The notes under the pieces were generated by a model. It searched no databases. It was not told the DNA's origin and saw nothing but the letters and a program-made list of their open reading frames with translations. The position numbers and the translations under genes are program-made. A stretch of DNA of 64,000 nt, taken from NCBI GenBank assembly GCA_045538555.1, contig JAZSRP010000034.1:430-64429 (forward strand), read 5' to 3'. Each line of letters starts with the position of its first letter. Position 1 is the stretch's first letter. Source of the stretch: Eubacteriales bacterium. GTDB taxonomy: Bacteria; Bacillota; Clostridia; Oscillospirales; CAG-382. Shown here piece by piece: positions 16,930-42,393 of this stretch.

Positions 16930-17234
16930 TGTTCCAAACAATGGTGTAATATTCCGTGCATGCGCCTTTTTTTCTCAAAAATTTGTTTGTAGAAGGACAG
17001 ATGATGGGTTAACAGGGTGTTGTTTTGCCGTTATATTATTTATAATGGAAGGAACAAGAGGATCCCGGAGCATTGCTCGAGGATGCTTCGGTAAAAAACG
17101 GAATGTTACGTCAGGACCTGCAGCATGAGAGGATGGTGCCGCCTCGCAGGGTGATCAAAGCCCGCCTTGTGATCGTGGCTCTGTCGGCTTTTGCAAGCGG
17201 TCCGCAGTTAAAAAATCTAAAAAGGAGAAAACAC

Positions 17235-20200
17235 ATGAAAAGGACTCTCAAAAGATCCCTGGCAACAGTTCTGTCCGTCCTGATGGTAGTCACCAGCATG
17301 ACCGCTGTTCTTGCCCTGTTTGCAGGCGCATACAACACAGGTGATGCTGTAGTTACCGGCGACTTTGTGAAGGTTAACCACAACCTCACAGCTACCCAGA
17401 CCGACTATATCACGGCAGACAACATTACCAACTATGCCAACTCCATGAATGATGGCATCACCGCTGATCCTGACGGCGGATTCTCCTACGGCGCTCCTTG
17501 GTATGCTTTCTATCTGTCCAACGACAACTCCAAGTATACCATCGATCCCGCTACCCACACCGGTTATGCTACCTTTGACCTTGGCGCTGCAAAGCCCATC
17601 TCTGAGGTTGCAATGCAGGTTGCTCCCGCTATCGGTACCGCTTCTTCCATCAAAGCATACGTCTCTGACGACAATGCAACTTGGGAAGAGGTTGCTACCC
17701 TGACCTACGAGGGCACCGCAATCCAGACAATCTCCGCAGTATTTGAGACCGAGATCGTTGCTCAGTACTGGAGATTTGAGTTTGTTACCGACGGCATGTT
17801 CTTCATGGTCTCCGAGATCATGGTTTATGAGTACAAGGCCGCTGAGAAAGCAAACATCGGCTCCATCAACGCATACGACTGGACTGCAAATCTTCCCATC
17901 ATCCTCGCTTACGGCAGGGACAAGACCGTTGAGACCGCTGTTGGCGGCAACTGGTTTGCATGGTGGATCAAGATCAAGGCAGAGTGGAGCCAGGACGATC
18001 ACGCATTTGTTGTAAATGCAATTGATGGCGCTCCCGGCACCGAGTCTCATGACTATGAGACCTGGACCCTTGGCGAAAAAGAGGTTATCCTCCTTGCCAA
18101 CTCCGGCAACGTTGACGCTGCTTCCTATGCTGCAGCTTCTGCTCTTGCAGTAGGCGACAAGCTCTACCTCTACGGCTTTGATTTCACAAACGCATCCGTC
18201 AACAACCTCTCCACCGAGGCAGACGGCGTTTACACTTCCTCTGTGTACTTCTACACTCAGATGGCAGTGGAAGATGGTGCATATGATGTTCCCGACGTAG
18301 TATATCCCGGTTACTTCACCGATGTTGATGTTCCCGAATTTGCAACCGTTGAAAACATCATCGATGACACCACCGTCATCACCCACGATTATGCCGCAAA
18401 CACTTCTTACCCCGGCGACATCGCTGACGGTATTGCTCCCGATTCCGGATACACCACCGATTGGCGTTCTTATCCCAACGGAACCACCTCCACCCTGTTT
18501 GATCTGGGCGCAGAGCGCTCCGACATCGGCGGTGTGAGAGTATACCTCTGGCCCGCAAACCAGTCCGGTATCGTTCCTCCCGATGCAATCAACGTATATG
18601 CATCCTGCGACAACGTTTCCTACGCACTCATGGGCACATTCGATCTGTCTGATCCTTTCTACAGCGAGAAGAGCTCCGAAACCATCTGGGCTGAGCTCAA
18701 GTTTGAGAAATTCCTCAACGCTCGCTACATCAAGATCGAGTTTGTAAACAATGCATCCTTCTGCTTTGTTGGTGAGATTGAGATCTGCGCAATGGAAGAG
18801 ATTTCCGTTCAGTATTTCACCACCACCTATGAGTACAGCACCAGCTCCATCAACCTTATCTCCTACGCAATGGCAGATATCCTTGATGACTGCAACGCAA
18901 ACCTCAAGACACACGAGTACTGGAACTTTGCTCAGGTTGAGTGGAATGCGGCTACCAGCACCTACCAGGTAGCAGGCGTTTACACCGCTGAGGCAGGCAA
19001 AGATTTTGGTGATCTTGCAGTTCCCAAGTACGGCTTCATCATCGGTGCACATGCTTCCGGCGGCGACGAGGCAGCAGAGGCATTTGCAGCATTTATCGCT
19101 TCTCTCAGTGAGGGCGACGATCTGTACCTCTACGGCGCAGACCTTGTTGAACTCACCGAGGTTGGCACCGCTATTCCCGATGCTTACATCACCACATCTC
19201 CCGTAGCAGGCGAGACCGCATACAGACCTGAGGTTATTCCTCTGTACACCTCTGTTGGTTTTGCAGCTTCTGACTCCACCCTCTTTGTTAGAATCACCAA
19301 AGAGGACGGCACTGTTCTCTCCACCCTCCAGGATGTCGCTGCTTATATCAGAGGCATCGAGGTTGGCGACCAGACCGACTACAACTACTACTACGTGATC
19401 ACCGTTGATGCTGACGACGTTGTTACCGGTACCTACTACGTACTGGGCAGAGACAACGAGGGCGGCCTCAAGGGCGAGATTGAGATCCCCGAGGGCGGCT
19501 ACGCAATCGGTCTCAACGCAGGAAGCAGCTATGCTGCAGAGTTCCAGGAATTCGTTGTAGGCGACAGCGTTGTTCTTTACGGCGTTGACCTCGACGAGCT
19601 TGCTCAGAACCCCGGTGCAACCATCGTTGAAGATGATCCTGCAACCGAGGATGTGGATGAGTCCTCCGTGACCGCTTCCACCATTGATATTTCCGGCGCA
19701 TTCTTTGCACGCGGCCACGTACATACATGGGAGACCATCGTTCTGGAACCCACATGTACTGCTGACGGCTACACCTATGACAAGTGCTCCACCTGCGGAG
19801 AGATCGTTATTGACGAGTCCACACGTGTTGGTATGACCGGTCACGATGAGTCCGGCGAGATCCTCACCAAGGAGCCCACCTGTGTTGATGAGGGATACGA
19901 TTACCGCATCTGCGGCAACTGCAATGAAGAGCTTGTTATTGAAGGAACCTCCGTTCCCGCAACCGGCAACCACACCTATGGTGAGGGCATTGCTGTCAAC
20001 ACCAAGTTCCTCCAGAAGACCTGTGAGGTTTGCTCCGGTGTTATCTACACCGACAATGACGGCAACGTTGCAAAAGACATTGTTGTTTCTCACAGAAATG
20101 CTTACAACTGGGGCACCTATGAGGCAATGATCATCACCGGCGAGGGCAAGACTGTTACAGAAGTAATCGGTCAGTCTCCTCTCTGGTGGACTGTTACCGT

Positions 20201-20867
20201 TATCCAGAACGTTGACGGCGTATACCGTGCAGTTGGTTTCTATCAGAACGTAGCTGAGGTTTCTACCGTTACCGTTCCTGCTGACGGCTTCCTCCTCTAC
20301 ACCTTTGAGACCAACAGCGCTCACGCATATGCAAACGGCGGCGGTCTCCAGGGTCACTACTTCCTGCCCATCATCGACGTTGAGGCAACCGCTCCCTTTG
20401 CAGTTGATCCTTCTGTTGCCGCACCGGATCACATCTACGCAATCGAGGCGCCCGCAGCTGACATGACCGGCTACAATGCCGCAAAAGCAGCAGCAGAGGC
20501 ACTCAATGCTGATGATTACACTCCTGAGACATGGGCAATTCTTGAGGCAGCTCTTGCTGTTGACGTAAGCAACAAGAAAGAGTATGAGCAGGCAGCAGTT
20601 GACGCGGCAACCTCCGCAATCAACGCAGCAGTTCTTGGCCTTGAGGATGCAGTTGCAGACGTAGTATTTGGCGATATCGACGGCAACGGCGAGTTTGACG
20701 GCAACGACCTTGTTCTTGCACGTCAGGTTGACGCAGCTATGATCGAGATCGACCAGGCACTCCTTGATGCAATCGAAGTAAGCGGCGACGGTATCTTTGA
20801 TGGTGCTGACGTTGTACTTATGGTTCAGATGGACGCAGGCTTTATTGACGCTTGGCCCGCTGAATAA
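17235..20867 (+). CDS. Secreted multidomain surface protein: two discoidin/F5-8-type-C-like modules, Cys-rich repeats, C-terminal dockerin
   Basis: AAAGGAG Shine-Dalgarno before the ATG at 17235. Signal peptide MKRTLKRSLATVLSVLMVVTSMTAVLALFAGA. Discoidin-like blocks (...YWRFEFVTDGMFFMVSEIMVYEY; ...RYIKIEFVNNASFCFVGEIEICA). Three D.LYLYG.D modules. TC..GY.Y..C..C repeats. C-terminal dockerin Ca-loops GDIDGNGEFDGND and SGDGIFDGAD. Confidence 0.85.
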   Translation: MKRTLKRSLATVLSVLMVVTSMTAVLALFAGAYNTGDAVVTGDFVKVNHNLTATQTDYITADNITNYANSMNDGITADPDGGFSYGAPWYAFYLSNDNSKYTIDPATHTGYATFDLGAAKPISEVAMQVAPAIGTASSIKAYVSDDNATWEEVATLTYEGTAIQTISAVFETEIVAQYWRFEFVTDGMFFMVSEIMVYEYKAAEKANIGSINAYDWTANLPIILAYGRDKTVETAVGGNWFAWWIKIKAEWSQDDHAFVVNAIDGAPGTESHDYETWTLGEKEVILLANSGNVDAASYAAASALAVGDKLYLYGFDFTNASVNNLSTEADGVYTSSVYFYTQMAVEDGAYDVPDVVYPGYFTDVDVPEFATVENIIDDTTVITHDYAANTSYPGDIADGIAPDSGYTTDWRSYPNGTTSTLFDLGAERSDIGGVRVYLWPANQSGIVPPDAINVYASCDNVSYALMGTFDLSDPFYSEKSSETIWAELKFEKFLNARYIKIEFVNNASFCFVGEIEICAMEEISVQYFTTTYEYSTSSINLISYAMADILDDCNANLKTHEYWNFAQVEWNAATSTYQVAGVYTAEAGKDFGDLAVPKYGFIIGAHASGGDEAAEAFAAFIASLSEGDDLYLYGADLVELTEVGTAIPDAYITTSPVAGETAYRPEVIPLYTSVGFAASDSTLFVRITKEDGTVLSTLQDVAAYIRGIEVGDQTDYNYYYVITVDADDVVTGTYYVLGRDNEGGLKGEIEIPEGGYAIGLNAGSSYAAEFQEFVVGDSVVLYGVDLDELAQNPGATIVEDDPATEDVDESSVTASTIDISGAFFARGHVHTWETIVLEPTCTADGYTYDKCSTCGEIVIDESTRVGMTGHDESGEILTKEPTCVDEGYDYRICGNCNEELVIEGTSVPATGNHTYGEGIAVNTKFLQKTCEVCSGVIYTDNDGNVAKDIVVSHRNAYNWGTYEAMIITGEGKTVTEVIGQSPLWWTVTVIQNVDGVYRAVGFYQNVAEVSTVTVPADGFLLYTFETNSAHAYANGGGLQGHYFLPIIDVEATAPFAVDPSVAAPDHIYAIEAPAADMTGYNAAKAAAEALNADDYTPETWAILEAALAVDVSNKKEYEQAAVDAATSAINAAVLGLEDAVADVVFGDIDGNGEFDGNDLVLARQVDAAMIEIDQALLDAIEVSGDGIFDGADVVLMVQMDAGFIDAWPAE

Positions 20868-20909
20868 CATTTTTCGTAATCCAATATATTTTATAAAAGG
20901 AGAAACCCC

Positions 20910-21938
20910 ATGAAAAGAATCGCACTTATCCTTGCGGTTGCAATGATGGTATCCTGCTTCGCATGCGTTTTCGCATCTGCTGATGACTGTGTATTCACCT
21001 TTGCAACTGCCGGCATCGAGGACAACAACGTTGTATATCTCGGAACTACCACTGATGATATTCCCGATGATATCTTTGCTGTTGCTCTTCGCGTTGACAC
21101 CGCTGGCCAGCCCTTCTGCCGTTACAAGGTAGAGATTGCGTTTGACGCAACCAAGCTTGGCTACATCACTTGTACCGAGAGCGAAGGCGACTGCCTCCTC
21201 GGTATCTACGACCACACCACCGATGGTTACAGAAAAGTTAAGTACGACCTCTGCAACGACATGAATGCAGAAGCCGGCAAAATCATCGTAACCATGACCA
21301 ACGCTAGCAACCTCACCTACAAGCAGGGTCTGAAGACTCAGAACCTCACAATGGCATCCTTCATCGTTCTTTACTTCTACCCCCTCACCGATGAGGCATG
21401 CGACACCACTCTCAGCTGGACCTACACTGAGGTCAGAGATCAAGTTCCTTCGCTTCTTCCTTCTACCGGCGAGAACCTCACCCTCAAGATGAACGGCGGT
21501 GCTCCTGCAGCATCTGCTCCTCTTACTTCTCTTGGCGCTCTCGTTAACGAGGAGCTCGTAGGCCTCCGCTTCGGCGCTACCTACAACAGAATCGTTGAGA
21601 ACGGCGAAGTTACCGATCTCGGTATGATGCTTCTCCCCGCTGCTAAACTCGGCGATGATGAGCTCACTCTCGACTACATTGCAAACGGCGCAAACGGCGA
21701 TCTCGTTGCTAAGCTCTCTGCTAGAGGCATCGACGCTGACAGCTACGTTGCAAACCAGGCATTTGAGGACTATGCAAGCTTCACTTACACCTGCACTGTT
21801 ATCGGTCTTGAGGGCCACGAGGATGCAGACATTGTTGCTGTTCCCTACATCACCTATGATGGAACCGGCGCAATCTCTGAGTTCTATGCAGATGCAATGG
21901 TTAGAAACTTTGCTGCTGTTCTTGCTGCAAACGCTTAA
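20910..21938 (+). CDS. Secreted protein with cohesin-like N-terminal domain
   Basis: Signal peptide MKRIALILAVAMMVSCFACVFASA. Residues of about 25-165 (…FAVALRVDTAGQPFCRYKVEIAFDATKLGYITCTESEG…GKIIVTMTNAS…) follow the cohesin beta-sandwich pattern by eye. The C-terminal half is not recognised. Confidence 0.5.
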   Translation: MKRIALILAVAMMVSCFACVFASADDCVFTFATAGIEDNNVVYLGTTTDDIPDDIFAVALRVDTAGQPFCRYKVEIAFDATKLGYITCTESEGDCLLGIYDHTTDGYRKVKYDLCNDMNAEAGKIIVTMTNASNLTYKQGLKTQNLTMASFIVLYFYPLTDEACDTTLSWTYTEVRDQVPSLLPSTGENLTLKMNGGAPAASAPLTSLGALVNEELVGLRFGATYNRIVENGEVTDLGMMLLPAAKLGDDELTLDYIANGANGDLVAKLSARGIDADSYVANQAFEDYASFTYTCTVIGLEGHEDADIVAVPYITYDGTGAISEFYADAMVRNFAAVLAANA

Positions 21939-21955
21939 TTTGGGAGGTAGTTGTA

Positions 21956-22078
21956 ATGAAATATACTGCACCTGAATTTGAAGTTGTTATGTTCCAGACC
22001 GAGGATGTTATCACCCTCTCTCTCGCAATTGAAGCAAACGACAACACCGTTGTTGCTCCCAACAGCTGGTGGAACTAA
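21956..22078 (+). CDS. WW-tail small peptide, paralogue A (40 aa)
   Basis: Hand translation: MKYTAPEFEVVMFQTEDVITLSLAIEANDNTVVAPNSWWN. GGGAGG Shine-Dalgarno 8 nt upstream. Starts 17 nt after the cohesin-like gene stop. Paralogous to the peptides at 29809-30129. Confidence 0.75.
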   Translation: MKYTAPEFEVVMFQTEDVITLSLAIEANDNTVVAPNSWWN

Positions 22079-26243: not shown

Positions 26244-28751
26244 TTACATCATAAAAAATGATACCAGCCATACGGGCAGCAGCCAAAACAGCTGAAAAGC
26301 CACTGCGTGGAGAGAGGTTATGGCACCTACGTCGCCTGTGATGGCAAGGAATGCAACTGCCGCAAAGGACAGAAAAACACTGACGGAGCTGATAATAAAA
26401 TTGCTTTTTGTAACGTGTTTTGCCTTGTCACAGAGAGCAAACATGGTCAAAAAGCTGTGAAGCGACGAGGAACAGACGATGCCGCTGTCCAGCCGTTGCA
26501 CCTCTCCCGCCACCTCCTGAGGGCTGTTGCTCCTCAGCACGGAGACAGGGCATTTTTTGAAAGAAACAGCTCTGTTTATCAGATCGTTGTTGATGTTGGG
26601 GTCAAGAGTCTTGATGCCTACGCAAAGATTGGCTTTGTACATCTCGCGCAAAAGTGCTTCAAAGAGAGGATTTACGGTATATTTGATGTACAGCTTGGCG
26701 GCGGGCTTGTCGTTGACAACCACGTACATGATGGAGCCGTTGGTGCGCTCGTATGCGTCGTCGCCGTCATCAACAGGGCAGTCAAAGCGGTATCTGCGCA
26801 TATATGACTTCTTGCCCAAAAAGTAGTTGCGGCCGTCCATTGCGATACAGAGCCCGTCATTGGCGCACTCAATGGTGCGGATAAGGGCGGGCGAATCAAA
26901 TTTTTCGGTAATAGTTGCGGCAAGAACCTTGGACAGAGGGCCTCCCACGTGTCCAAAAAGCTTTGCAAGATCGGTGAGAATGGCATCGATCCGAAAATCA
27001 CCGTACATACGTATATTGGTAATCTTTACCAGGTTGGCGGGATACACCTCGGTGTCTGCAAAGGACAGCACCGATGCCTGAGCGTATTCTTCCGATACGG
27101 CGTTGCCCACAAAAGCGGTGGAAAACCTCTTGCCCACACGGTTTGCGGAGATGAGGGGAAGGTTGTTGGCAAAAAAAGCGGTGGCGGGCATGCTTGCCGC
27201 AATGAGAATGGAAAAAGCGGCATAGGAATCAACCGGAGCATACCCCATCACAGCCAGAGTGACAAAGAGAGCCACTCCTGCCAAAAAGATGGCCGGAACC
27301 AAAAAGTTGAATATATCCTCGGACTTGGGACGTTTTTCGATCCTCTCCATAAATCCGTCAACAAAATCCGCTCTCTTGACAGTGTAGAGCTCGCTGTCCT
27401 CAAAGAGGTACTTGTAAAATTCGTCGGCTTCCTTTGCGTCGCTTCCCAGCTGGCAGGCAGTGTATTTTGGTTTTTTGACTGCCACCACACGGAAACAGCG
27501 CAGGTTCTTTTTTGCGTCCAACAAGTTGATGAGGGCGCTGCACAAGCAACAAAAAGCGGCGGGAAGATTGTACAACCGCAGGTCGATTGCCGACGGATCG
27601 GTAAACATTATCACCACCGAATACGCAGCGGCAAAAAACACAGAGATGGCCAAAAGACTGTCTGTAGAAAGCCGAAACGTGGTGATACCCTTGATACCGT
27701 TGCGGATAGAATCCAGCATGGTAAGAGCGATAAAGAACAAGAGCTGAAGGTCAATGAGGATATAAAGAATCCCGTATCTGCCCTGTTTTGTAAAATCAGA
27801 ATGAATGCTGCTGTCCTTGGTAGCCAGCTCCAAAAACAGGATGGCTGCCGTTAGCACGGAAACGATGATAAGCTTGAGCATGGACGTGCGGACGCGCTTT
27901 GTCAAAAGGGCGGAAATAACACCGTTTTGCTTGCGGTCTGTGTATCTCAGCTTTGTTTCCTCGGGCTCTCGAGAACGTTTTTTTGAGGATTCGGTCTGTT
28001 TTGCCAGTTGATCCAGACGTCCATCCTCGTCCTCCATCATTTCAAACGCCAGCCGCAGATTGATGTCTGTTTCGTCAAGTGCTTCTTCTCCCAAAAGGGT
28101 GAGTTTGTCGTCATCGGTAACAAATTTTACCTGACCTTCTGTTTCTTCTTCCTCAAAATGAAGATCACGTCCCGTGACTTTTTCAGTCAGCTCCTCATAT
28201 CCCGAGTCAAAGCTTGCCGTTTCCTGCTCCTTTTCCTCGGCTCCCACGCGGAGAGTGTCTCCCAACGGAAACATTTCCTCTTGGGTATATTCCTCAAATT
28301 TGGGAACCTCTGCCTCGTCCACAAAACGGTATTCCGCAAAAGCGGCCGGAGGCAGCTTTTCACCCTCGGACAGTGTGCGTGTCTTGGCGTCGTTGATCAT
28401 TTTGTACAGCTTTTCCACACGCTGGCTGGGCTTTTTTTCACTGCTGTCGGCAACGTATTCCAACAGCTCACTGCCCTCGTTTTGCTCTGCCAGCTTCATG
28501 CGGAGCTTTTGGGTGTCGGTGAGTTTGTCCGCCACAGGGCGGGTGCTGTACATATCGATCAGCTCGGCGGTCTCGGCGTTGATGCGCTTTGTGACCTTGG
28601 TCTGCTTTTTCTTTGACTGCTCGTCCGCTACAAGGGTTTTTTGGAGCTCGGGCTTGGGTGCGTCGCGCTCCAGCTTCATGTCGGACCGGTTTTTTTCCTC
28701 TGCCTGTCGCAGGATCTCAAGTATATCCGGTTGTTTTTTTTGATCGGCCAT
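26244..28751 (-). CDS. Degenerate P1B-type ATPase homologue with long acidic N-terminal region
   Basis: 835 aa. About 290 acidic or low-complexity residues, then TM helices. IAASMPATAFF sits where CPC-type ATPases have IACPCALGLA. SFADTEVYP replaces FDKTGTLT. GIKTLDPN replaces TGD. No GDGxND motif. Confidence 0.5.
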   Translation of the reverse strand: MADQKKQPDILEILRQAEEKNRSDMKLERDAPKPELQKTLVADEQSKKKQTKVTKRINAETAELIDMYSTRPVADKLTDTQKLRMKLAEQNEGSELLEYVADSSEKKPSQRVEKLYKMINDAKTRTLSEGEKLPPAAFAEYRFVDEAEVPKFEEYTQEEMFPLGDTLRVGAEEKEQETASFDSGYEELTEKVTGRDLHFEEEETEGQVKFVTDDDKLTLLGEEALDETDINLRLAFEMMEDEDGRLDQLAKQTESSKKRSREPEETKLRYTDRKQNGVISALLTKRVRTSMLKLIIVSVLTAAILFLELATKDSSIHSDFTKQGRYGILYILIDLQLLFFIALTMLDSIRNGIKGITTFRLSTDSLLAISVFFAAAYSVVIMFTDPSAIDLRLYNLPAAFCCLCSALINLLDAKKNLRCFRVVAVKKPKYTACQLGSDAKEADEFYKYLFEDSELYTVKRADFVDGFMERIEKRPKSEDIFNFLVPAIFLAGVALFVTLAVMGYAPVDSYAAFSILIAASMPATAFFANNLPLISANRVGKRFSTAFVGNAVSEEYAQASVLSFADTEVYPANLVKITNIRMYGDFRIDAILTDLAKLFGHVGGPLSKVLAATITEKFDSPALIRTIECANDGLCIAMDGRNYFLGKKSYMRRYRFDCPVDDGDDAYERTNGSIMYVVVNDKPAAKLYIKYTVNPLFEALLREMYKANLCVGIKTLDPNINNDLINRAVSFKKCPVSVLRSNSPQEVAGEVQRLDSGIVCSSSLHSFLTMFALCDKAKHVTKSNFIISSVSVFLSFAAVAFLAITGDVGAITSLHAVAFQLFWLLPVWLVSFFMM

Positions 28752-28768: not shown

Positions 28769-29539
28769 TTATGTGTTCCGCTGTTTTGCGGCTTCAAACA
28801 TCACAACGGCGCCTGCCGCAGAGACGTTGAGTGAATTGACACTTCCGTACATGGGAATGCCTGTGATAAAATCACTTTCTTTTTTGATTAGGTCGGACAC
28901 GCCCTCCCCCTCGCTTCCCAGCACAAGAGCTACAGAGCCCTTGAAATCCTGCTGATAGTAAGGAGTACCGCCTGCCTCCAGCGCCCAGATCCAGACGCCG
29001 CTGTCCTTGAGGGTCCTGATGGCGGAAACAAGGTTTGACACCCGGGCAATAGGCATTGAGAACACGGCGCCTGCGCTGGATTTTGCCACAGTGCCGTTTA
29101 CGCCTACCGAGCGTCTTTTTGGAATGATGATCCCGTTGACACCGGCACAGAGAGCGCTTCTGATGATGGCGCCCAGATTGTGAGGGTCGTTGATGGAATC
29201 ACAAATGACAAAAAATGGCTTTTGGCCGTTTTCTTCCGTCAGCTCCAGAAGCTCTGTCACCGACAGATAGTCGGTCTCTGCCGCCACGGCAATAACTCCT
29301 TGATGTACGGCTCCGCCGCTGAGAGCATCCAGCTTGCGGTTGTCGGTATCCACCAGAGGTATCCTTGCCTCACGGGCAAGAGAGCGAATTTTTGCCAAAA
29401 CGCCGTCCTGCTGACCCGATATGTAAATTCTGTCCACCGTGCGTCCGCTTTTCAAAAGCTCTGTCACGGCGTTTCTGCCCACAAAAAGTCCCTCGTCGGG
29501 CACCTTGGGGGATTGCTTTTTGTCATATCTTTCGCTCAT
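28769..29539 (-). CDS. rlmB: 23S rRNA (guanosine-2'-O)-methyltransferase, TrmH/SpoU family
   Basis: 256 aa from the ATG at 29539 (GGAG Shine-Dalgarno). SpoU motifs DSINDPHNLGAIIRS, LVLGSEGEGVS, IPMYGSVNSLNVSAA. Confidence 0.85.
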   Translation of the reverse strand: MSERYDKKQSPKVPDEGLFVGRNAVTELLKSGRTVDRIYISGQQDGVLAKIRSLAREARIPLVDTDNRKLDALSGGAVHQGVIAVAAETDYLSVTELLELTEENGQKPFFVICDSINDPHNLGAIIRSALCAGVNGIIIPKRRSVGVNGTVAKSSAGAVFSMPIARVSNLVSAIRTLKDSGVWIWALEAGGTPYYQQDFKGSVALVLGSEGEGVSDLIKKESDFITGIPMYGSVNSLNVSAAGAVVMFEAAKQRNT

Positions 29540-29667
29540 GGCGTTCTCCAATATACAAAAATAAATCGTTTTTTAAAACAGCAAGAAACATGATGTTTTT
29601 TTGCCTGCAAACGAGCAAAAAGTCTGTTTTTGTCACCTTTTGGTTCTTCCTATACAAATCCACGTTC

Positions 29668-29696
29668 ATTATAACACACATTGTTTTTTGTGTCAA
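29668..29696 (-). promoter_or_regulatory. Exact consensus sigma-A promoter of the rlmB operon
   Basis: The - strand reads TTGACA (29696-29691), 17-nt spacer, TGT-TATAAT (29673-29668). Confidence 0.7.
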
Positions 29697-29764
29697 TCAC
29701 AGCGGGGCTGACTTTGCAAAAAAAGTGCTTGATTTCAGGTGGCTTTTTGAACTGCGGAAGAACA

Positions 29765-29792
29765 AAAAAGACACCTGAAAAGGTGTCTTTTT
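29765..29792 (-). terminator. Terminator of the small-peptide operon (bidirectional hairpin)
   Basis: aaaaagacacc-tgaaaa-ggtgtcttttt: an 11-bp stem with U-tracts in both orientations, 17 nt downstream of the peptide B stop. Confidence 0.85.
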
Positions 29793-29808
29793 GAAAGCTT
29801 GCAATAAA

Positions 29809-29940
29809 TCAGTTGTCCCACCAAGCAGTAGGAGCTTTTGTGGTATTGTCACCCTCAACAACAGCCAGAGAAGCAGAAATGACATCTGTCATATCGTACT
29901 CAACGAAAGTGATCTTGGGCTCGGTGTAAATCTTGTTCAT
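29809..29940 (-). CDS. WW-tail small peptide, paralogue B (43 aa)
   Basis: Hand translation: MNKIYTEPKITFVEYDMTDVISASLAVVEGDNTTKAPTAWWDN. GAGAGAGG upstream. Shares its N-terminal block and DN-x7-WW tail with peptides A and C. Confidence 0.75.
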   Translation of the reverse strand: MNKIYTEPKITFVEYDMTDVISASLAVVEGDNTTKAPTAWWDN

Positions 29941-29982
29941 GGCATAGTACCTCTCTCTATAATATCAAATAATACGCGCAGA

Positions 29983-30129
29983 TCAATCCCACCAGTCGGG
30001 GGGCAGAGTGACGCCGTTGTCGCCGTCGGAAATTGCAAGTGACGCATCATTTGCAGGGGATGCGGATACAACGTCACGGAAATCATAACCGATGATATTG
30101 AGTTCGGGCTCCGAATAATACTTTTTCAT
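29983..30129 (-). CDS. WW-tail small peptide, paralogue C (48 aa)
   Basis: Hand translation: MKKYYSEPELNIIGYDFRDVVSASPANDASLAISDGDNGVTLPPDWWD. AAGGTGA Shine-Dalgarno 6 nt upstream. Confidence 0.75.
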   Translation of the reverse strand: MKKYYSEPELNIIGYDFRDVVSASPANDASLAISDGDNGVTLPPDWWD

Positions 30130-30190
30130 AATCAGTCACCTTGTTGTTTATCGTACGGGCAAAAACCCAGATGCTACTTGATTCTCACTT

Positions 30191-30219
30191 ATTATACCCC
30201 CAAAAACTCCTGTTGTCAA
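30191..30219 (-). promoter_or_regulatory. Exact consensus sigma-A promoter of the peptide C/B operon
   Basis: The - strand reads TTGACA (30219-30214), 17-nt spacer, TATAAT (30196-30191). About 55 nt upstream of the peptide C start. Confidence 0.75.
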
Positions 30220-30350
30220 GAGGTTTTTCGGAATTTTCGGGCTGTTTTGTCAAAACATTTTTGAAACACTATATAATGTGGATTCCATGGGAATTTTTTT
30301 CAAAACATACCCAATAGGTAGAAACAAATTTTTTTCTGTTGATCAAAAAA

Positions 30351-31568
30351 TCATTTTTTTTCAAATAATTTCAGATCATCGTAGAGGCGGTTTCGTTTTT
30401 TTGCGCTTTTCATCACCTGTCCGATATCCGCCTCCTGCTTTTTGAACAATATCCGCATCAAGGACAAAAAAGGAATGTATATCCAAAACACGGGCAGAAG
30501 GATGGGGCATTTTTTTGTGATAGGGTATCGGTTGTACGCTTTTGTGTTGAGGCGGGAAATCATGGCGGAAAAAGCGGATTTGCGTCCCTTGTCCTCGCTT
30601 GACGCACCGCCCACAAAGTGTGAGCTCAGCCGTCTCTCTCTGCTCTGGTAAAAAAAGTTGCTTCCCTCCAGCAGATCCTCCGTGAGCCGATCCCACAGCT
30701 CCTCCTTTGTTCCGCAAAAAAACTCCGGCATGGGCATCCCCAGATGCTTGTGGCAGACCCCGCACAGGGCAGAACCAAACTTCCACATTCCGCAGGATTC
30801 AAAATCCTTTTTGTCCTCATCTGTCAGCATTTTGCTGTAATAATTTGCGCTGATTGCCCAGTCGCACAGCTGCCGCAGACCAACGCTGGAGGTGAGCATA
30901 TGCCGTTCTGTATGGAACAGCAGCGACAAAAGCTGAAATTTTGGTGCCAGCACGTTAAACTGCCTTCCCTTCAGAGCGGCGGTGCAGGTGCGGTCAAGGG
31001 CGGAATCAAAAAGCTTTTTTGAAAAATTTCCGCAATCGTTGTTTGGAAAAACAGATACGGAGCGGTGAAGTTCCACAAACACACCGTCCTTTTCCAGAGC
31101 GATGTGAAAATCATGATCCTCTGCCGCCTCCGATTGGCAAAAACCCATTTCACGCAGCAGCTCTGCGCCCTCCTCCAGCCGTTCCTCCGGCAGCAAAAGG
31201 TCAATATCTCCCAGCACTCTCAGCTCGGGGCGGGGATAGCAGGCGGCAACGCTTGCGCCCTTGAGCACAGATACGGGAATCCCGCTTTGGATGAGACGGG
31301 AGAGAATCTCCTCCTCTGTCTCAAGGAGCTTGTCTCCCTTGAGCATGGTGGAAACAGTGAGCGATTTGAGCTGTTTTATCAGATCGGCAGGAACCTCCCA
31401 CTCACTGCTGTGAGCGGTGAGCCCTCCCAAAAGCAGAGGCATGACACTGTGGCGCTTTGCCTCGGTCATCAGAGCACGCCAATCTGTTCCTTTTGCACAA
31501 AAGGGCACACAAACGCCAAAAAGTTCTTCTGCCAGCAGTGCCAGCAACAGGCGGTGTTCTTGGTTCAT
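30351..31568 (-). CDS. Uncharacterised nucleotidyltransferase family protein (NTP_transf_5 / PF14907-like)
   Basis: 405 aa. GGAGG Shine-Dalgarno. The N-terminus LLLALLAEELFG..., the catalytic-type LGDIDLLLPEE motif and the overall length fit this family as I remember it. Confidence 0.6.
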   Translation of the reverse strand: MNQEHRLLLALLAEELFGVCVPFCAKGTDWRALMTEAKRHSVMPLLLGGLTAHSSEWEVPADLIKQLKSLTVSTMLKGDKLLETEEEILSRLIQSGIPVSVLKGASVAACYPRPELRVLGDIDLLLPEERLEEGAELLREMGFCQSEAAEDHDFHIALEKDGVFVELHRSVSVFPNNDCGNFSKKLFDSALDRTCTAALKGRQFNVLAPKFQLLSLLFHTERHMLTSSVGLRQLCDWAISANYYSKMLTDEDKKDFESCGMWKFGSALCGVCHKHLGMPMPEFFCGTKEELWDRLTEDLLEGSNFFYQSRERRLSSHFVGGASSEDKGRKSAFSAMISRLNTKAYNRYPITKKCPILLPVFWIYIPFLSLMRILFKKQEADIGQVMKSAKKRNRLYDDLKLFEKK

Positions 31569-31610: not shown

Positions 31611-34115
31611 TCAGTCAACCACTCCCGAGCCCGCAATAACAGAAAAAATCTCTGCACCGTTGCGAAATCCTCTGGGTTTATAGTATGTTTTGTTTATAAA
31701 ATCAATGACAGAATCCGCATCCTCGCGTTTGACAAGAATCATGATGCATCCGCCAAGCCCTGCGCCGGAGAGCTGTGCCCCCAGAACGCCTTTTTGGGCA
31801 AGAACGCTGTCCACAAGTCCGTCAATATCGGCAGTGGAGCAGGCATATCCGCCCGGCTGATTGTGGATCTGTGCGTTTGACACCTTGGCGGGATGCTCGC
31901 TTTTCAGATCGTTGATGAGACGGTAGAGATACAGCTCGTTGGCGGAATAATCGTATTTTTTGTCCCCTGATGCCACGCGGTCGCCGTTGTGGCTGGTGTT
32001 CATCAGTTCGCCCAAGCGGGAAATATCTCCGCTTTTGAGACACCGGATACAAAATTCACTTCTCTCACACTCGGCGATGCCGTACAGAACCACACTGCGA
32101 ATATCATAAAACTCCGGCGGAGTGTGGGTTTTAAAAATTCTTTCGATACGGTCGGATTCCTCCGGGAGTGCCTGTCTTACCTCCTCTGCAGTCATCCGCT
32201 CGGGAAGGGTGATGAGCATCTCGTAGATTCTGGACGGGGGAACAGACAGAGTTTTGGGATTGACGTCCTTGAGCACTTTCATTTTTTCGGCATACTGCGG
32301 AAAATTCTTTTTAAGCAGCATCAGGCCAAACTCGTACCCTGCAATCTTTGAATTGAAAATATCCTTTGCTCCCGCGCTCTTTTTTGCCTCCACAAAGCTG
32401 TTGGCAACAATGAGACGGTAATCCTCGGGAAAAGGAACCGATTCTCCTACAGAGAACGGGTTGAAATAAAGATGGGTAATGCTTCCTGCGCTTCCGCATT
32501 TCATTGCGGCGTGGTCGCCTGCACCGCCCCGTGAGCCCACAAACCATTCTCCCTCACCGCACAGGCGTATAAATTCGCTTCGATCCAGCTCGATGCCGTT
32601 GAGGGCAACTGCCGCTTCCATGGTGGAGACCACAATGGAGGAGGAGCTGGAAAGTCCTGCTGCCATGGGGATGTTTCCCAAAAACATCATGTTCATGCCG
32701 CACAGAGCTTTTTTTCTGTCACCAAGCTGAAGCCGAAGGATGGCGGCCTTGACATAGTTGATCCAATCACCTTTGTGCTGTTCCACAACGGAGGTGATGG
32801 AGGCAGATTCAATAAATTCCAGCCAGTTTTCGGTGTCGTATTTTTTTATGTGATCCAGAATGGAAAAGCTATAATCCTCAAATCCATCCTTTACGTTGGA
32901 GATGGTAACAACATCGTCCTCGGTGGGCGAAACCGCCACCAGCATTTCACGGCTGATGGTGAGTACGTTGATGCTTCCGCCCCGATGCTCAATATGGCGT
33001 CCCATTACGTTGAGACGGCCGGGAGCCCTTGCGATCAAAATTTCTCTGTCGCCAAACCGCTCCAAAAACCGTTCCAGCAAAAGGATATAGCTTTCTCTGC
33101 GCTCCGCCAAAAGCCGGCTGTCGTTGCCGTATATCTCAACAAATTTTGCTTCCATACCACTGTCACGGCGGCGAATCCGATCCAAAAGCTCGCTTGCTTT
33201 CGGAATCCGGCGGCTCACGTGGGAAGCAAAGTATTTTTCAAGCTTTATCAGCTCCTCCATGGTGCTGTAGGTCAGCAGCATGTGGGGTTCTGTGACGGGA
33301 ACGATCTTTGTGCCGCCGTTGGCAGAAAGATCGTTGATGGCGTCTGTCATGTACAGCTCGCCCTGTGCGTTGTTTGAGCTGAGGTTGGACAGGGCAGACA
33401 ACGCAGTGTCCACGTCCACCAGATAAGTGGCGGAGTTGACGTATTTTCCCGACTCGATATCTTTGGGACTGAATTTGTGTCCGCAAAGCTCTGTGGGTAT
33501 CACGCTCGTCAGCTTTTTTGCAGATTCCAGCAGTTTTGCGCTCTTTTTCTCGCTGAGTCCAAAGGAACCGACAGCATTTTCAAGCTCCGATTCATCAAGG
33601 GGAAGCAGTGTGGAAATATGTCTCAGATACGAATCCATCTGCTCGATGATACCGCAGACCTTCCCGTTTTTCATCAGCACTCTGCCGCCGGAGGGGTTGC
33701 GGTCTTTTGGAGTAACTGCAAAAACAGCGCTGTCTCCCGGGCCAAATTCTTCTATCAGCCATTTAAAAACCAAAGGGTCGATGATCTTGTCGCCCATACA
33801 AACAAAAGCGTTGCCTGTATAACCCGTAGATCTCAGTGCCTTGAGTCCGATATAGGCGGCGTTTCCCGTACCGTTTTGTGTCTTTTGGTATGCGTACACC
33901 ACTCCCTCGACACCGTCGAGGCAGTCCATGACCTTGTCTGCTTTTGATCCCACCACCACCACAAAACGGGACACGCCCGCTTGCTTCAGGTTGTCAATAA
34001 GCCGCAGAATGGCAGGTCTTCCCGCAATTTCATAGCACACCTTGTGGGTACGGTCGTCCTTCATGCGGGTGCCTCTGCCGGCACAAAGAAGAATTGCCGC
34101 TGGAGAGCTGTTCAT
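31611..34115 (-). CDS. Bifunctional sugar-1-phosphate nucleotidylyltransferase / GHMP sugar kinase (Fkp-like architecture)
   Basis: 834 aa. N-terminal LCAGRGTRM nucleotidyltransferase signature. C-terminal galactokinase-type APGRLNVMGRHIEHRGG and GHMP motif PMAAGLSSSSS. Confidence 0.75.
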   Translation of the reverse strand: MNSSPAAILLCAGRGTRMKDDRTHKVCYEIAGRPAILRLIDNLKQAGVSRFVVVVGSKADKVMDCLDGVEGVVYAYQKTQNGTGNAAYIGLKALRSTGYTGNAFVCMGDKIIDPLVFKWLIEEFGPGDSAVFAVTPKDRNPSGGRVLMKNGKVCGIIEQMDSYLRHISTLLPLDESELENAVGSFGLSEKKSAKLLESAKKLTSVIPTELCGHKFSPKDIESGKYVNSATYLVDVDTALSALSNLSSNNAQGELYMTDAINDLSANGGTKIVPVTEPHMLLTYSTMEELIKLEKYFASHVSRRIPKASELLDRIRRRDSGMEAKFVEIYGNDSRLLAERRESYILLLERFLERFGDREILIARAPGRLNVMGRHIEHRGGSINVLTISREMLVAVSPTEDDVVTISNVKDGFEDYSFSILDHIKKYDTENWLEFIESASITSVVEQHKGDWINYVKAAILRLQLGDRKKALCGMNMMFLGNIPMAAGLSSSSSIVVSTMEAAVALNGIELDRSEFIRLCGEGEWFVGSRGGAGDHAAMKCGSAGSITHLYFNPFSVGESVPFPEDYRLIVANSFVEAKKSAGAKDIFNSKIAGYEFGLMLLKKNFPQYAEKMKVLKDVNPKTLSVPPSRIYEMLITLPERMTAEEVRQALPEESDRIERIFKTHTPPEFYDIRSVVLYGIAECERSEFCIRCLKSGDISRLGELMNTSHNGDRVASGDKKYDYSANELYLYRLINDLKSEHPAKVSNAQIHNQPGGYACSTADIDGLVDSVLAQKGVLGAQLSGAGLGGCIMILVKREDADSVIDFINKTYYKPRGFRNGAEIFSVIAGSGVVD

Positions 34116-40701: not shown

Positions 40702-42393
40702 TCAAAAAAAGTTTTTTGCAGCCGCCAGCACCGTCAGCACCGTCAGCTTTGAGGACACCTTTTTGCCGACAAAATTGTCCTCCAGCAGCTTTTTTGTTTC
40801 GGGAATATAATCAAAAAAGGCAATGTTTTCCTTGAAATAGTTTTCTACAAAATCCCGCATTTCCGGCTTTGTGTCGTACCAAAAATCAAAGGGGTTCATG
40901 TTTTGGGAGGCGTATCCGGATCTGACCAGTCCCAGCTTTTTCAGCATGCGTCTGACACGGTTTTTTACCCCTCGTTTGATATGCGCCCACTCTTTTTTTG
41001 CCCTTGAGGCAGGACGCTGTCTGGTGGTGGGAATGGCTGCGGCATCGGGGTGCTTTTTGTCCAGCCACGCCCAGTACAGCTTGTGTCCGCAGCGGTATTC
41101 CAGCGGAATCTCAAGGCAGGTCTCCATAAATTCCACGTCAATAAAAGGTGCCACCGCCGTGGTGTAATGTCTCCGTACAAAGTGGGTGGTGAGGGTTTTT
41201 TGAAACCCCGACAGATATTTTGTAAAAATCTCGTTGTTCTCGTATTCCTCTGTCTGCGTCAGCATGGGGTCGATACCCTTTGTCAGCACCATGCAGTCCG
41301 CATTGAGCGCTCGCATCTCATCCGGAGAGTCGGAGTAGGAGCTCAGCACAAGCCCCAGCTGGCCCGTGTGCTCAAGCCCAAATTTTTTGAAATCCAGCTC
41401 TGCCAAAAAACGCTCGCCGCCGGTGATGCCTGCATAATACGCCAGCCCGTAGTTCTTTTTTACGATGCTGTCAACGTCGTAAATAAATTCCACTCCGTCC
41501 AGTGATCGAAACTGCCACTCATTGCCCATTGCCTCGGCGGCAAGACGGGCATACTCGGATTCCTGTGAGCCGTTTTTTGAGTAGGAGATATTTGTGATGT
41601 TGTCATATCCCAGTTTTTTTGCCACAAAAGAGGTCATGCGGGAATCCAGTCCGCCGCTCATGTCCGCAAGGTGGTGGGAATATCCGTATTCCAGATCCTT
41701 GTCAAAGCAGCGCTTCACCGCCTTTTGAAAAGCGGAATCAACTCTTTCCACCGCCTCGTCAAGCGTCATCTGTTTCGGCTTGTTGGAAAACCTGTGGTAG
41801 ATATTTTCTGTCGCTCCGTTCCTTGACAGCGTGACGACCTTGCCGGGATTGGATTTGTGTATCTCGCTGACGTAGGTGTTTCCCTCCACCACACAGCCCA
41901 TGGAGAGGATCTGGTTTGCGGCAACGGGGTTGAAGGTGAGAGGCACCTCTGCCTTTTTGCAGAGCTCCAAAACCGAAAGAAAATCATTGGAAACGGCGCA
42001 AAAATGACGGTCGTTGTAATAAAAAATTATACCGTCTCCCGTCTGGTTGCCAAACGCTGAAAGAGAGTCACTCTCCGTGTCCGCAACCACTCCGCAAAAT
42101 GGACCGATAAACCTGCGGAAAAACAGCGGATCTTCTTTTTTTAATGCAGAAACAAGAGAGGGCATATCGGATACGTCTGCAGCTTCCTTGAGCTCGGTCG
42201 AGTTGAGAATAACTCCGTCCAGCAGCAAAAGCTCGTTTCCGTCCTCAAAAAAGGCACAATCTCCCTCAAACCGTCCGTCTGCAAAAAAAGATGCGCGGAG
42301 GTTTCCGCGTGCAATCACTTTGTGTGTGTCGGGAGCGGAAAAAATATTCTCATACCTCGGGTCGTATGCCCGAAAAACCGTCCATTTGTTCAT
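40702..42393 (-). CDS. Asparagine synthetase B-family adenylating amidotransferase lacking the N-terminal Cys nucleophile
   Basis: 563 aa. PP-loop SGGLDSR present. The N-terminus is MNKWTV instead of MCG. Confidence 0.75.
   Translation of the reverse strand: MNKWTVFRAYDPRYENIFSAPDTHKVIARGNLRASFFADGRFEGDCAFFEDGNELLLLDGVILNSTELKEAADVSDMPSLVSALKKEDPLFFRRFIGPFCGVVADTESDSLSAFGNQTGDGIIFYYNDRHFCAVSNDFLSVLELCKKAEVPLTFNPVAANQILSMGCVVEGNTYVSEIHKSNPGKVVTLSRNGATENIYHRFSNKPKQMTLDEAVERVDSAFQKAVKRCFDKDLEYGYSHHLADMSGGLDSRMTSFVAKKLGYDNITNISYSKNGSQESEYARLAAEAMGNEWQFRSLDGVEFIYDVDSIVKKNYGLAYYAGITGGERFLAELDFKKFGLEHTGQLGLVLSSYSDSPDEMRALNADCMVLTKGIDPMLTQTEEYENNEIFTKYLSGFQKTLTTHFVRRHYTTAVAPFIDVEFMETCLEIPLEYRCGHKLYWAWLDKKHPDAAAIPTTRQRPASRAKKEWAHIKRGVKNRVRRMLKKLGLVRSGYASQNMNPFDFWYDTKPEMRDFVENYFKENIAFFDYIPETKKLLEDNFVGKKVSSKLTVLTVLAAAKNFF

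Follow-up and report, generated by a model that had tools for sequence, protein, structure and literature searches.

Putative orphan precursor peptides with a conserved Trp-Trp-Asp tail in a Clostridial genome and their possible relation to linear polyphosphorylated peptides

What are the two small peptides encoded by a compact transcription unit at positions 29,809 to 30,219 of a 64-kb stretch of DNA from a Eubacteriales bacterium (contig JAZSRP010000034.1; the whole stretch is called the window)? The genes, C and B, lie on the minus strand, and their products carry a Trp-Trp-Asp (WWD) motif at the C-terminal end. The first-pass annotation of this DNA took them for an autonomous pair of paralogs with the layout of precursors of peptides that are made on ribosomes and modified after translation (RiPPs) or of exported pheromones, and it did not recognize the family. 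Our analysis adds a third paralog, A, located 8 kb from C and B in the window. We propose that C, B, and A are orphan LppA-like precursors of a pathway resembling that of the linear polyphosphorylated peptides (LPPs), matured in trans, and we give this proposal a probability of about one in two.

Both open reading frames (ORFs) are present exactly as they had been read by hand, each with a Shine-Dalgarno site. Residues 1–24 of each peptide form a leader-like block. In B the block is followed by the core module SLAVVEGDNTTKAPTAWWDN, and in C an extra SPANDA insert stands before the core module SLAISDGDNGVTLPPDWWD. C and B are identical at 21 of 42 aligned residues, and only 58% of their nucleotides are identical. 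Synonymous codon sites are saturated (proportion of differing sites, pS = 0.87) compared to 0.29 for nonsynonymous sites (pN), which bears out the proposal that the two genes are paralogous and conserved at the protein level. The Asn of the GDN motif is 8 residues from the first Trp in both peptides, the identical spacing described before. None of the three peptides has a signal peptide, their net charge is −4 to −6, and a hydrophobic N terminus is not present. They contain no Cys, so the Cys-dependent RiPP chemistries are out, as had been stated. The unit runs from an exact TTGACA-17-TATAAT promoter to a terminator with a stem and T run. The word autonomous therefore fits its transcription. 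It does not fit maturation, because the genes expected for that step are not in the 64-kb window save for a PF14907 nucleotidyltransferase. Peptide A was found with a hidden Markov model (HMM) of the N-terminal block.

The homologous small ORFs on which the first-pass annotation had made its claim depend were found in related genomes (loci are designated by L numbers). Orthologous C–B tandems occur in L005/L006, L007, L008, and L131, and L001 holds a further C ortholog. Orthologs of B were identified in L005, L007, L131, L135, L138, and L143, and those of A in L009, L010, L074, L131, L137, and L138. The ratio of nonsynonymous to synonymous substitution rates (dN/dS) is 0.06–0.25 for orthologs where dS could be estimated. 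Comparison of C with its L005 ortholog gave 0.06, with changes at 22 of 31 synonymous and 13 of 113 nonsynonymous sites, and comparison with L007 gave 0.10. The values for B range from 0.21 to 0.25 (0.25 against L005), and the value for A against L009 is 0.23. The possibility that A, B, and C are spurious ORFs was considered and is ruled out by dN/dS. When the C–B unit is aligned over its full length across the window, L005, L007, and L131, TTGAC and TATAAT are invariant within diverged flanks. A GC-rich stem and T run follow B in both the window and L005 with different stem sequences; at the same position L131 has a T run and L007 has no clear hairpin. These comparisons confirm that C, B, and A are genuine genes under strong purifying selection.

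The 5' untranslated region of the C–B transcript (30130–30190, minus strand) is ~87% identical between the window and L005 by hand count, and the coding regions are only 74–76% identical. The higher identity of the untranslated region hints at a conserved regulatory element in the transcript. A search of Rfam with 29400..30500 gave sub-threshold, terminator-like matches only.

Searches of Pfam and NCBIfam gave no match for C, B, or A, and to this extent the family is as unfamiliar as it first appeared. A word-indexed protein search returned only the queries themselves, and a full-text literature search for the leader strings returned nothing relevant. HMMER was run against 1.84 × 10^9 representative proteins and gave 22 matches at E ≤ 1e-3, of which ~18 are peptides of 36–57 residues. 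The sole named relative in the collection is labeled "hypothetical protein." The consensus of the small relatives is MKKxYxxPELExIxFxxxDIITxSLAxxxGDNxxxxPxxWWD. M1, Y5, P8, D19, and S24 are invariant among them, and D37 and W46 are nearly so. Metagenome contigs were then scanned with a hand-made degenerate DNA pattern that covers the N-terminal block only. The scan gave at least 120 loci, mostly from gut and rumen, compared to a chance expectation that we estimate as ~2. Among the matches listed, every ORF is 30–77 residues long and joins the same leader-like block to a hypervariable, acidic, Gly/Pro-rich tail. Residues that the pattern does not impose are also conserved in 100 metagenome peptides among the matches listed: S24 in 93%, T23 in 72%, F15 in 66%, and T22 in 63%. 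The block spans ~24 residues with the form M-K-K-x-Y-x-x-P-E-h-x-h-h-x-[FY]-x3-D-[IV]-[IV]-[TS]-x-S. Because the leader is common to the wider family and the tails are hypervariable, the WWD tail defines one conserved subfamily. Tail classes in L011–L130 include ...W[ST][DG][FL]Y, ...NIW[GD]ED, ...GDGGNED, a Pro-rich acidic class, and ...P..WW[DN].

The neighboring ORFs of all loci were clustered, and representatives were annotated with Pfam and NCBIfam. A cassette recurs beside members of the leader family. It comprises an HprK-like kinase of ~250 residues with weak ScmC, HprK_rel_A, and PEPCK matches, a PqqD RiPP recognition element (RRE) whose best NCBIfam model is the lasso PqqD chaperone, an archaeal/SipW-type signal peptidase I, a fused ABC exporter, and a PF14907 nucleotidyltransferase. 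Most or all of it is present in nine loci. Six (L012, L029, L071, L113, L118, and L124) contain kinase, RRE, peptidase, and exporter; L061, L078, and L093 contain the first three, and the exporter HMM had no match there. A TetR regulator and a membrane protein ending in ...ELPFVPAE are also frequent in cassette loci. The kinase stands alone in many other loci of the family. About half of the peptides for which at least 3–4 kb of sequence is available on each side have a kinase, RRE, or peptidase gene within that distance. About half have none, so precursors without a cassette are common. None of the nine cassette loci has a cyclase-like Asn-synthase gene. The SGGxDS match in L113 (a 387-aa ORF on the opposite strand) was rejected as a cyclase because its context is that of a small PP-loop ATPase. 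The cassette RRE profile matches TbiB1, PbaB1 (9X90), TfuB1, and LppB (9X8Z). Sequence searches of the PDB with the PF14907 protein and the HprK-like protein returned nothing useful. An HMM was built from the leaders of the nine cassette-linked precursors, and C (E = 2.4e-8), A (1.5e-7), and B (0.028) were the best three of the 1405 ORFs in the window. These results support the assignment of the C, B, and A leader, by sequence, to the YxxP type, the kind bound by PqqD-like RREs. The RiPP-precursor layout suggested at the outset is thus upheld by a YxxP-type leader and by same-leader peptides inside complete RRE/kinase/peptidase/exporter cassettes of other Clostridia.

A membrane-anchored low-complexity protein encoded just after the peptide in several LPP-type metagenome loci (L012 6092–6907, L078 3701–4510, L033 1781–2365, and others) ends in ...IELPFVPAE or ...IELPFIPAK. 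The peptide tails in those loci share this C-terminal motif (...NPELPFVPVSGK, ...ETPFVPFSEK).

The family is therefore not wholly foreign, since the gene set of its wider membership matches that of the LPP RiPPs described in May 2026. Popov et al. (Nat Commun) define the LPP set as LppA, LppK, LppB, LppS, LppD, and LppN (PMC13381572). LppK polyphosphorylates Ser3 of the LppA core, the SpI-like LppS cleaves after T-1 with the help of the RRE LppB, and the clusters are located inside capsule loci (PMC13381572). The peptidase of L061 is 99.4% identical to SCH01704.1 from an uncultured Ruminococcus, which Supplementary Data 1 of that work places in similarity cluster no. 9 and not in the main cluster 1, the focus of its authors (PMC13381572).

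The LPP-like proposal draws on the genes and their transcription signals, the purifying selection, membership in the leader family, the linkage of that leader to LPP-type cassettes elsewhere, and the PF14907 gene and capsule locus next to C and B. The pathway would operate as follows. An RRE encoded elsewhere in the genome, where the other trans-acting enzymes would also be encoded, would bind the leader. The HprK-like kinase would phosphorylate the near-invariant Ser24. This residue is invariant in the WWD subfamily, and its near-invariance is best explained if it is a modification site. The adjacent LppN-like PF14907 nucleotidyltransferase may add a further phospho-linked group, for which the donor could come from the neighboring capsule locus. 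The SipW-type signal peptidase would cut off the leader around residues 22–23, where a small residue marks the putative site. The ABC exporter would release an acidic product of 19–25 residues bearing S-L-A-x3-G-D-N-x4-P-x2-W-W-D.

The PF14907 gene is the last of a capsule-type locus and lies directly upstream of the C–B promoter (Table 1). Its product is 22–32% identical to the PF14907 proteins of LPP-type cassettes. The gene for an 834-aa fusion protein lies 42 nt further upstream, and the same pair is found in L007. The fusion protein is a possible source of an activated sugar donor for the peptides. Further upstream, the capsule-type cluster encodes a DegT aminotransferase, a UDP-glucose dehydrogenase, a flippase, an Asn-synthase-like protein, GT4 glycosyltransferases, and a Wzy-like polymerase.

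Table 1. Positions of the peptide genes, their expression signals, and neighboring genes in the window
Feature	Position	Strand	Length	Remarks
Peptide C gene	29983..30129	-	48 aa	MKKYYSEPELNIIGYDFRDVVSASPANDASLAISDGDNGVTLPPDWWD
Peptide B gene	29809..29940	-	43 aa	MNKIYTEPKITFVEYDMTDVISASLAVVEGDNTTKAPTAWWDN
Peptide A gene	21956..22078	+	40 aa	MKYTAPEFEVVMFQTEDVITLSLAIEANDNTVVAPNSWWN; tail SLAIEANDNTVVAPNSWWN (...APNSWWN); third paralog
C–B promoter, sigma-70 type	TTGACA 30219..30214; TATAAT 30196..30191	-		17-nt spacer; 12/12 consensus matches
Shine-Dalgarno site of C	30136..30142	-		AAGGTGA, 6 nt before ATG; read from the sequence
Shine-Dalgarno site of B	29950..29955	-		GAGAGG, 9 nt before ATG; read from the sequence
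Intrinsic terminator of C–B unit	29765..29792	-		12-pair stem, then T run
PF14907 (NTP_transf_5) nucleotidyltransferase, LppN-like	30351..31568	-	405 aa	Pfam E = 1e-41
Sugar-1-phosphate nucleotidylyltransferase/GHMP (galactokinase-like) kinase fusion	31611..34115	-	834 aa	Pfam, NCBIfam
Asn-synthase-like PP-loop protein, divergent	40702..42393	-	563 aa	SGGLDS motif; no glutaminase domain; 10.5 kb away, in capsule cluster
Secreted protein upstream of A	20910..21938	+	342 aa	ends 18 nt before A

Several points weigh against the LPP-like proposal. The kinase, RRE, peptidase, and exporter HMMs have no match in the 64-kb window. Homologs of LppK, LppB, LppS, and LppD were likewise not found within ±10 kb of the WWD-type loci L002, L005, L007, L074, L131, L135, L137, and L138. 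The PF14907 neighbor is restricted to the near relatives of the window, L005, L006, and L007. In L131, L135, L138, and L143 the peptides are flanked by a secreted-protein operon on one side and rlmB on the other, and PF14907 is missing there; the adjacency of this gene to C and B may therefore be incidental. The leader departs from the published LPP motif (Px9Fx[T/A], or YxxPxVLxHQxIxFETxxS) in that the residue 10 after P8 is Arg or Thr in C and B, not Phe; the best analog of the motif is P-x12-[IV]-x-[TA]. The cassette-leader HMM misses LppA of P. alginolyticus, whose sequence was rebuilt from a primer table. Strong conservation of the WWD tail contrasts with the hypervariability of LPP cores. 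No activity of LppN could be detected on heterologous expression, and neither the end product of the LPP pathway nor its function has been established (PMC13381572). Since the HMM touches the paeninodin-type leader PbaA, misses LppA, and describes a leader that is off the published motif, the Clostridial leader is a distinct, lasso-like Tyr variant.

The gene order in related genomes places C and B in a wider setting. In L131, L135, L138, and L143 the order is a large F5/8-type-C or dockerin protein, a 343–365-aa secreted protein, A, (C), B, rlmB, a ~840-aa CopA-like protein, an EF-G paralog, and ALGX. The block from C and B through rlmB to ALGX is inverted in the window relative to A, and it is because of this inversion that C lies next to the capsule locus. 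Between the terminator of A and the 3' end of the ALGX gene are an imperfect inverted repeat of 103 nt with 75% complementarity (22148–22250/22334–22436) and a palindromic direct repeat of 32 nt (22281–22312/22447–22478), both unique within the window. This repeat region marks the junction of the inversion that sets the window lineage apart from L131 and L138. In front of rlmB (29668–29696, minus strand), only ~70 nt downstream of the C–B terminator, lies another perfect TTGACA-17-TATAAT promoter, which also has a TG extension. For the 835-aa membrane protein at 26244–28751 (minus strand), Pfam gave no match, and the copper P-type ATPase CopA was matched only weakly (3rfu, E = 2e-7). Its synteny with rlmB and a B-type peptide is constant (window, L005, L007, L131, L135, L138, and L143).

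Peptide A is the last gene of an operon that encodes a 1264-aa protein (17073–20867), the 342-aa secreted protein, and A, with a terminator after A. The 1584-aa ORF at 17217..21971 on the minus strand was rejected as an artifact that runs antisense to the true genes for the 1264-aa and 342-aa proteins on the plus strand. A Pfam search gave no family for the 342-aa protein, and an AlphaFold2 model from a 6-sequence alignment had a pLDDT of 37, too low for use. Homologs of 343–365 residues precede A-type peptides in L009, L131, L137, L138, and L140, and the three-gene order of large protein, secreted protein, and A recurs in L131, L137, and L138.

This arrangement raises a second explanation, that the peptides are unmodified or only trimmed acidic peptides that act with a protein partner, whether as its cognate ligand, as its inhibitor, or by helping its assembly or anchoring. 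The partner of A would be the secreted protein encoded upstream, the N-terminal block would serve export or partner binding, and C and B would be free-standing duplicates of A. The linkage extends to the whole leader family. Among the matches listed, a same-strand ORF of at least 150 residues precedes 100 of the 107 peptides with enough upstream sequence (median gap 20 nt), so that the gene of a large secreted protein nearly always comes immediately before that of a leader-family precursor. The proteins encoded upstream are secreted or surface-located and varied in architecture, including BspA-type LRR (LRR_5), F5/8 type C, PA14, GLUG, and dockerin-bearing proteins. In L011–L130 the tail class tracks the sequence family of the C-terminal 200 residues of the upstream protein, although this co-variation may reflect mere inheritance of the operon as a unit. 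A-type peptides are always found behind a 342–365-aa secreted protein, and the conserved tail argues for a conserved binding partner. The cassette was not found near any WWD-type locus examined, which also fits peptides that need no modification. However, a peptide that lacks a signal peptide needs a dedicated exporter to reach a secreted partner, and no partner gene precedes C and B. Leaders homologous to that of the peptides are encoded beside RRE, kinase, and peptidase genes, and the constancy of Ser24 again points to modification. We regard the partner explanation as possible but tentative.

The two ideas can be combined into a bolder one. In a system widespread among gut and rumen Clostridia, each large secreted surface protein might be paired with its own RRE-leader peptide. 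The peptide core, once phosphorylated, given phospho-glycosyl decoration by enzymes of the capsule locus, and exported, would be the ligand or anchor for the C-terminal domain of the upstream protein. Surface proteins would in this way be linked to the capsule or the cell wall. C and B, at the end of the capsule locus, would then be strongly expressed, free-standing copies of the anchor. We consider this scheme rather improbable. If true, the surface-anchor system would give the LPP class a role and would represent a new way to attach proteins to the cell surface.

The peptides might instead be lasso precursors that are cut after residue 23, with Ser24 as core residue 1 forming a macrolactam with the Asp of GDN at core residue 8; the tail would thread the ring, and the Trps would act as plugs. 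Genes for the cyclase and the B2 protease would lie elsewhere; alternatively, the Asn-synthase-like protein of the capsule locus would be the cyclase. The residues on which a lasso peptide depends (leader residues Y5 and P8, then S24, D37, and W46) are the invariant or near-invariant ones. Most members have a Ser-to-Asp spacing of 8 and a few have 9, B and A agree with S1...D8, and the predicted core of 19–20 residues has a typical lasso length. Two residues before S24 most members have Thr or Ser (Thr in A and most homologs, Ser in B). The cassette-leader HMM also matches PbaA (E = 1.4e-3), and the RREs of the family are closest to lasso B1 proteins. The C-type copies do not conform. With their insert of 6–8 residues between S24 and SLA...GDN, the ring rule holds only for a longer leader that has no Thr at −2, and the Ser of SLA is replaced by Asp in P0011 and in the C peptide of L131. 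The candidate cyclase has weak matches to macrolactam cyclase models (35 bits against a cut-off of 300), but it scores better on asparagine synthase models and is far under the cut-offs of both. Its position between a flippase and a glycosyltransferase, near UDP-glucose dehydrogenase, fits sugar amidation. Asn-synthase-like, transglutaminase-like, and PqqD genes were not found in the other eight WWD-type loci, PqqD was not found in the window, and the cassettes of the wider family have no cyclase. In Bacillota, WxxP marks the leaders of paeninodin-type lasso peptides and YxxP those of LPPs (PMC13381572). A lasso structure for these peptides is unlikely.

The weakest explanation, the first-pass analogy with ComX and type II ComS/XIP in which an exported pheromone has its C-terminal Trp-Trp sensed by a cytoplasmic or membrane receptor, is very improbable. 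It starts from a DWW-like C-terminal motif that resembles that of XIP peptides and from the strong promoter and conserved tail, and a mature RiPP product could still signal; but the peptides are strongly acidic, neither hydrophobic nor basic, and begin with a RiPP-type leader, and no ComQ-like, ComR/Rgg-like, or other receptor gene lies beside ~10 subfamily loci. Rgg/ComR, RRNPP, ComQ-like, and histidine kinase genes do not adjoin the peptides in the window, L005, L007, L131, L135, L137, L138, or L143, where the actual neighbors are PF14907, rlmB, the CopA-like protein, the EF-G paralog, and ALGX.

Comparison with known systems places the peptides accordingly. Type II ComS/XIP and ComX are likewise small, unannotated peptides whose C-terminal motif contains Trp, and the likeness extends no further than the WW dipeptide; the partner genes (ComR/Rgg or ComQ/ComP), the composition, the leader, and the taxon all differ. 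The likeness to paeninodin/pseudomycoidin-type lasso peptides includes a leader of the M-K-K-x-[W/Y]-x-x-P-E-L-E-V type bound by a discrete PqqD B1 RRE, an HprK-like kinase and a nucleotidyltransferase as tailoring enzymes, a small core residue 1, Asp at position 8, and bulky residues near the C terminus. The differences are that no member is linked to a cyclase or B2 protease, the leader has Tyr instead of Trp, the C-type copies break the ring rule, and the family cassettes use a SipW-type serine peptidase.

The likeness to LppA and the LPPs consists of a short precursor whose N-terminal YxxP leader is conserved, as is a Ser immediately behind the predicted site of cleavage. Relatives that share this leader reside in LppK/LppB/LppS/LppD/LppN-type cassettes with no macrolactam cyclase, and C and B adjoin a PF14907 nucleotidyltransferase and a capsule polysaccharide locus, a neighborhood that is absent in L131, L135, and L138. 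In contrast to the LPPs, the C, B, and A leader comes nearer in spacing and consensus to paeninodin-type lasso leaders, from which it differs by its Tyr; C and B have no kinase, RRE, peptidase, or exporter gene within 64 kb; the tail is conserved where the LPP core is hypervariable; and the host belongs to the Clostridia rather than the Bacilli. The leader family is coupled to genes for large secreted proteins, a coupling that the LPP paper does not describe (PMC13381572). Defined as late as 2026 and chiefly on Bacilli, the LPP class has neither a final structure nor a function established for it (PMC13381572). The window points to a much larger Clostridial branch of at least 120 loci with its own lasso-like Tyr leader. 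Within that branch the WWD subfamily combines a conserved core with synteny that persists in several lineages and with detachment from the modifying cassette. The conserved core makes the subfamily tractable, because one synthetic peptide, antibody, or mass spectrometry target serves many organisms. It could help show what LPP-type peptides do and whether the PF14907 enzyme ties them to capsule biosynthesis. Judged by their leader sequence, the peptides fall into a Clostridial branch of the LPP/lasso world, which depends on RREs and was described in 2026, and what is new is the conserved-core WWD subfamily, its detachment from the cassette, and the family-wide coupling to secreted-protein genes.

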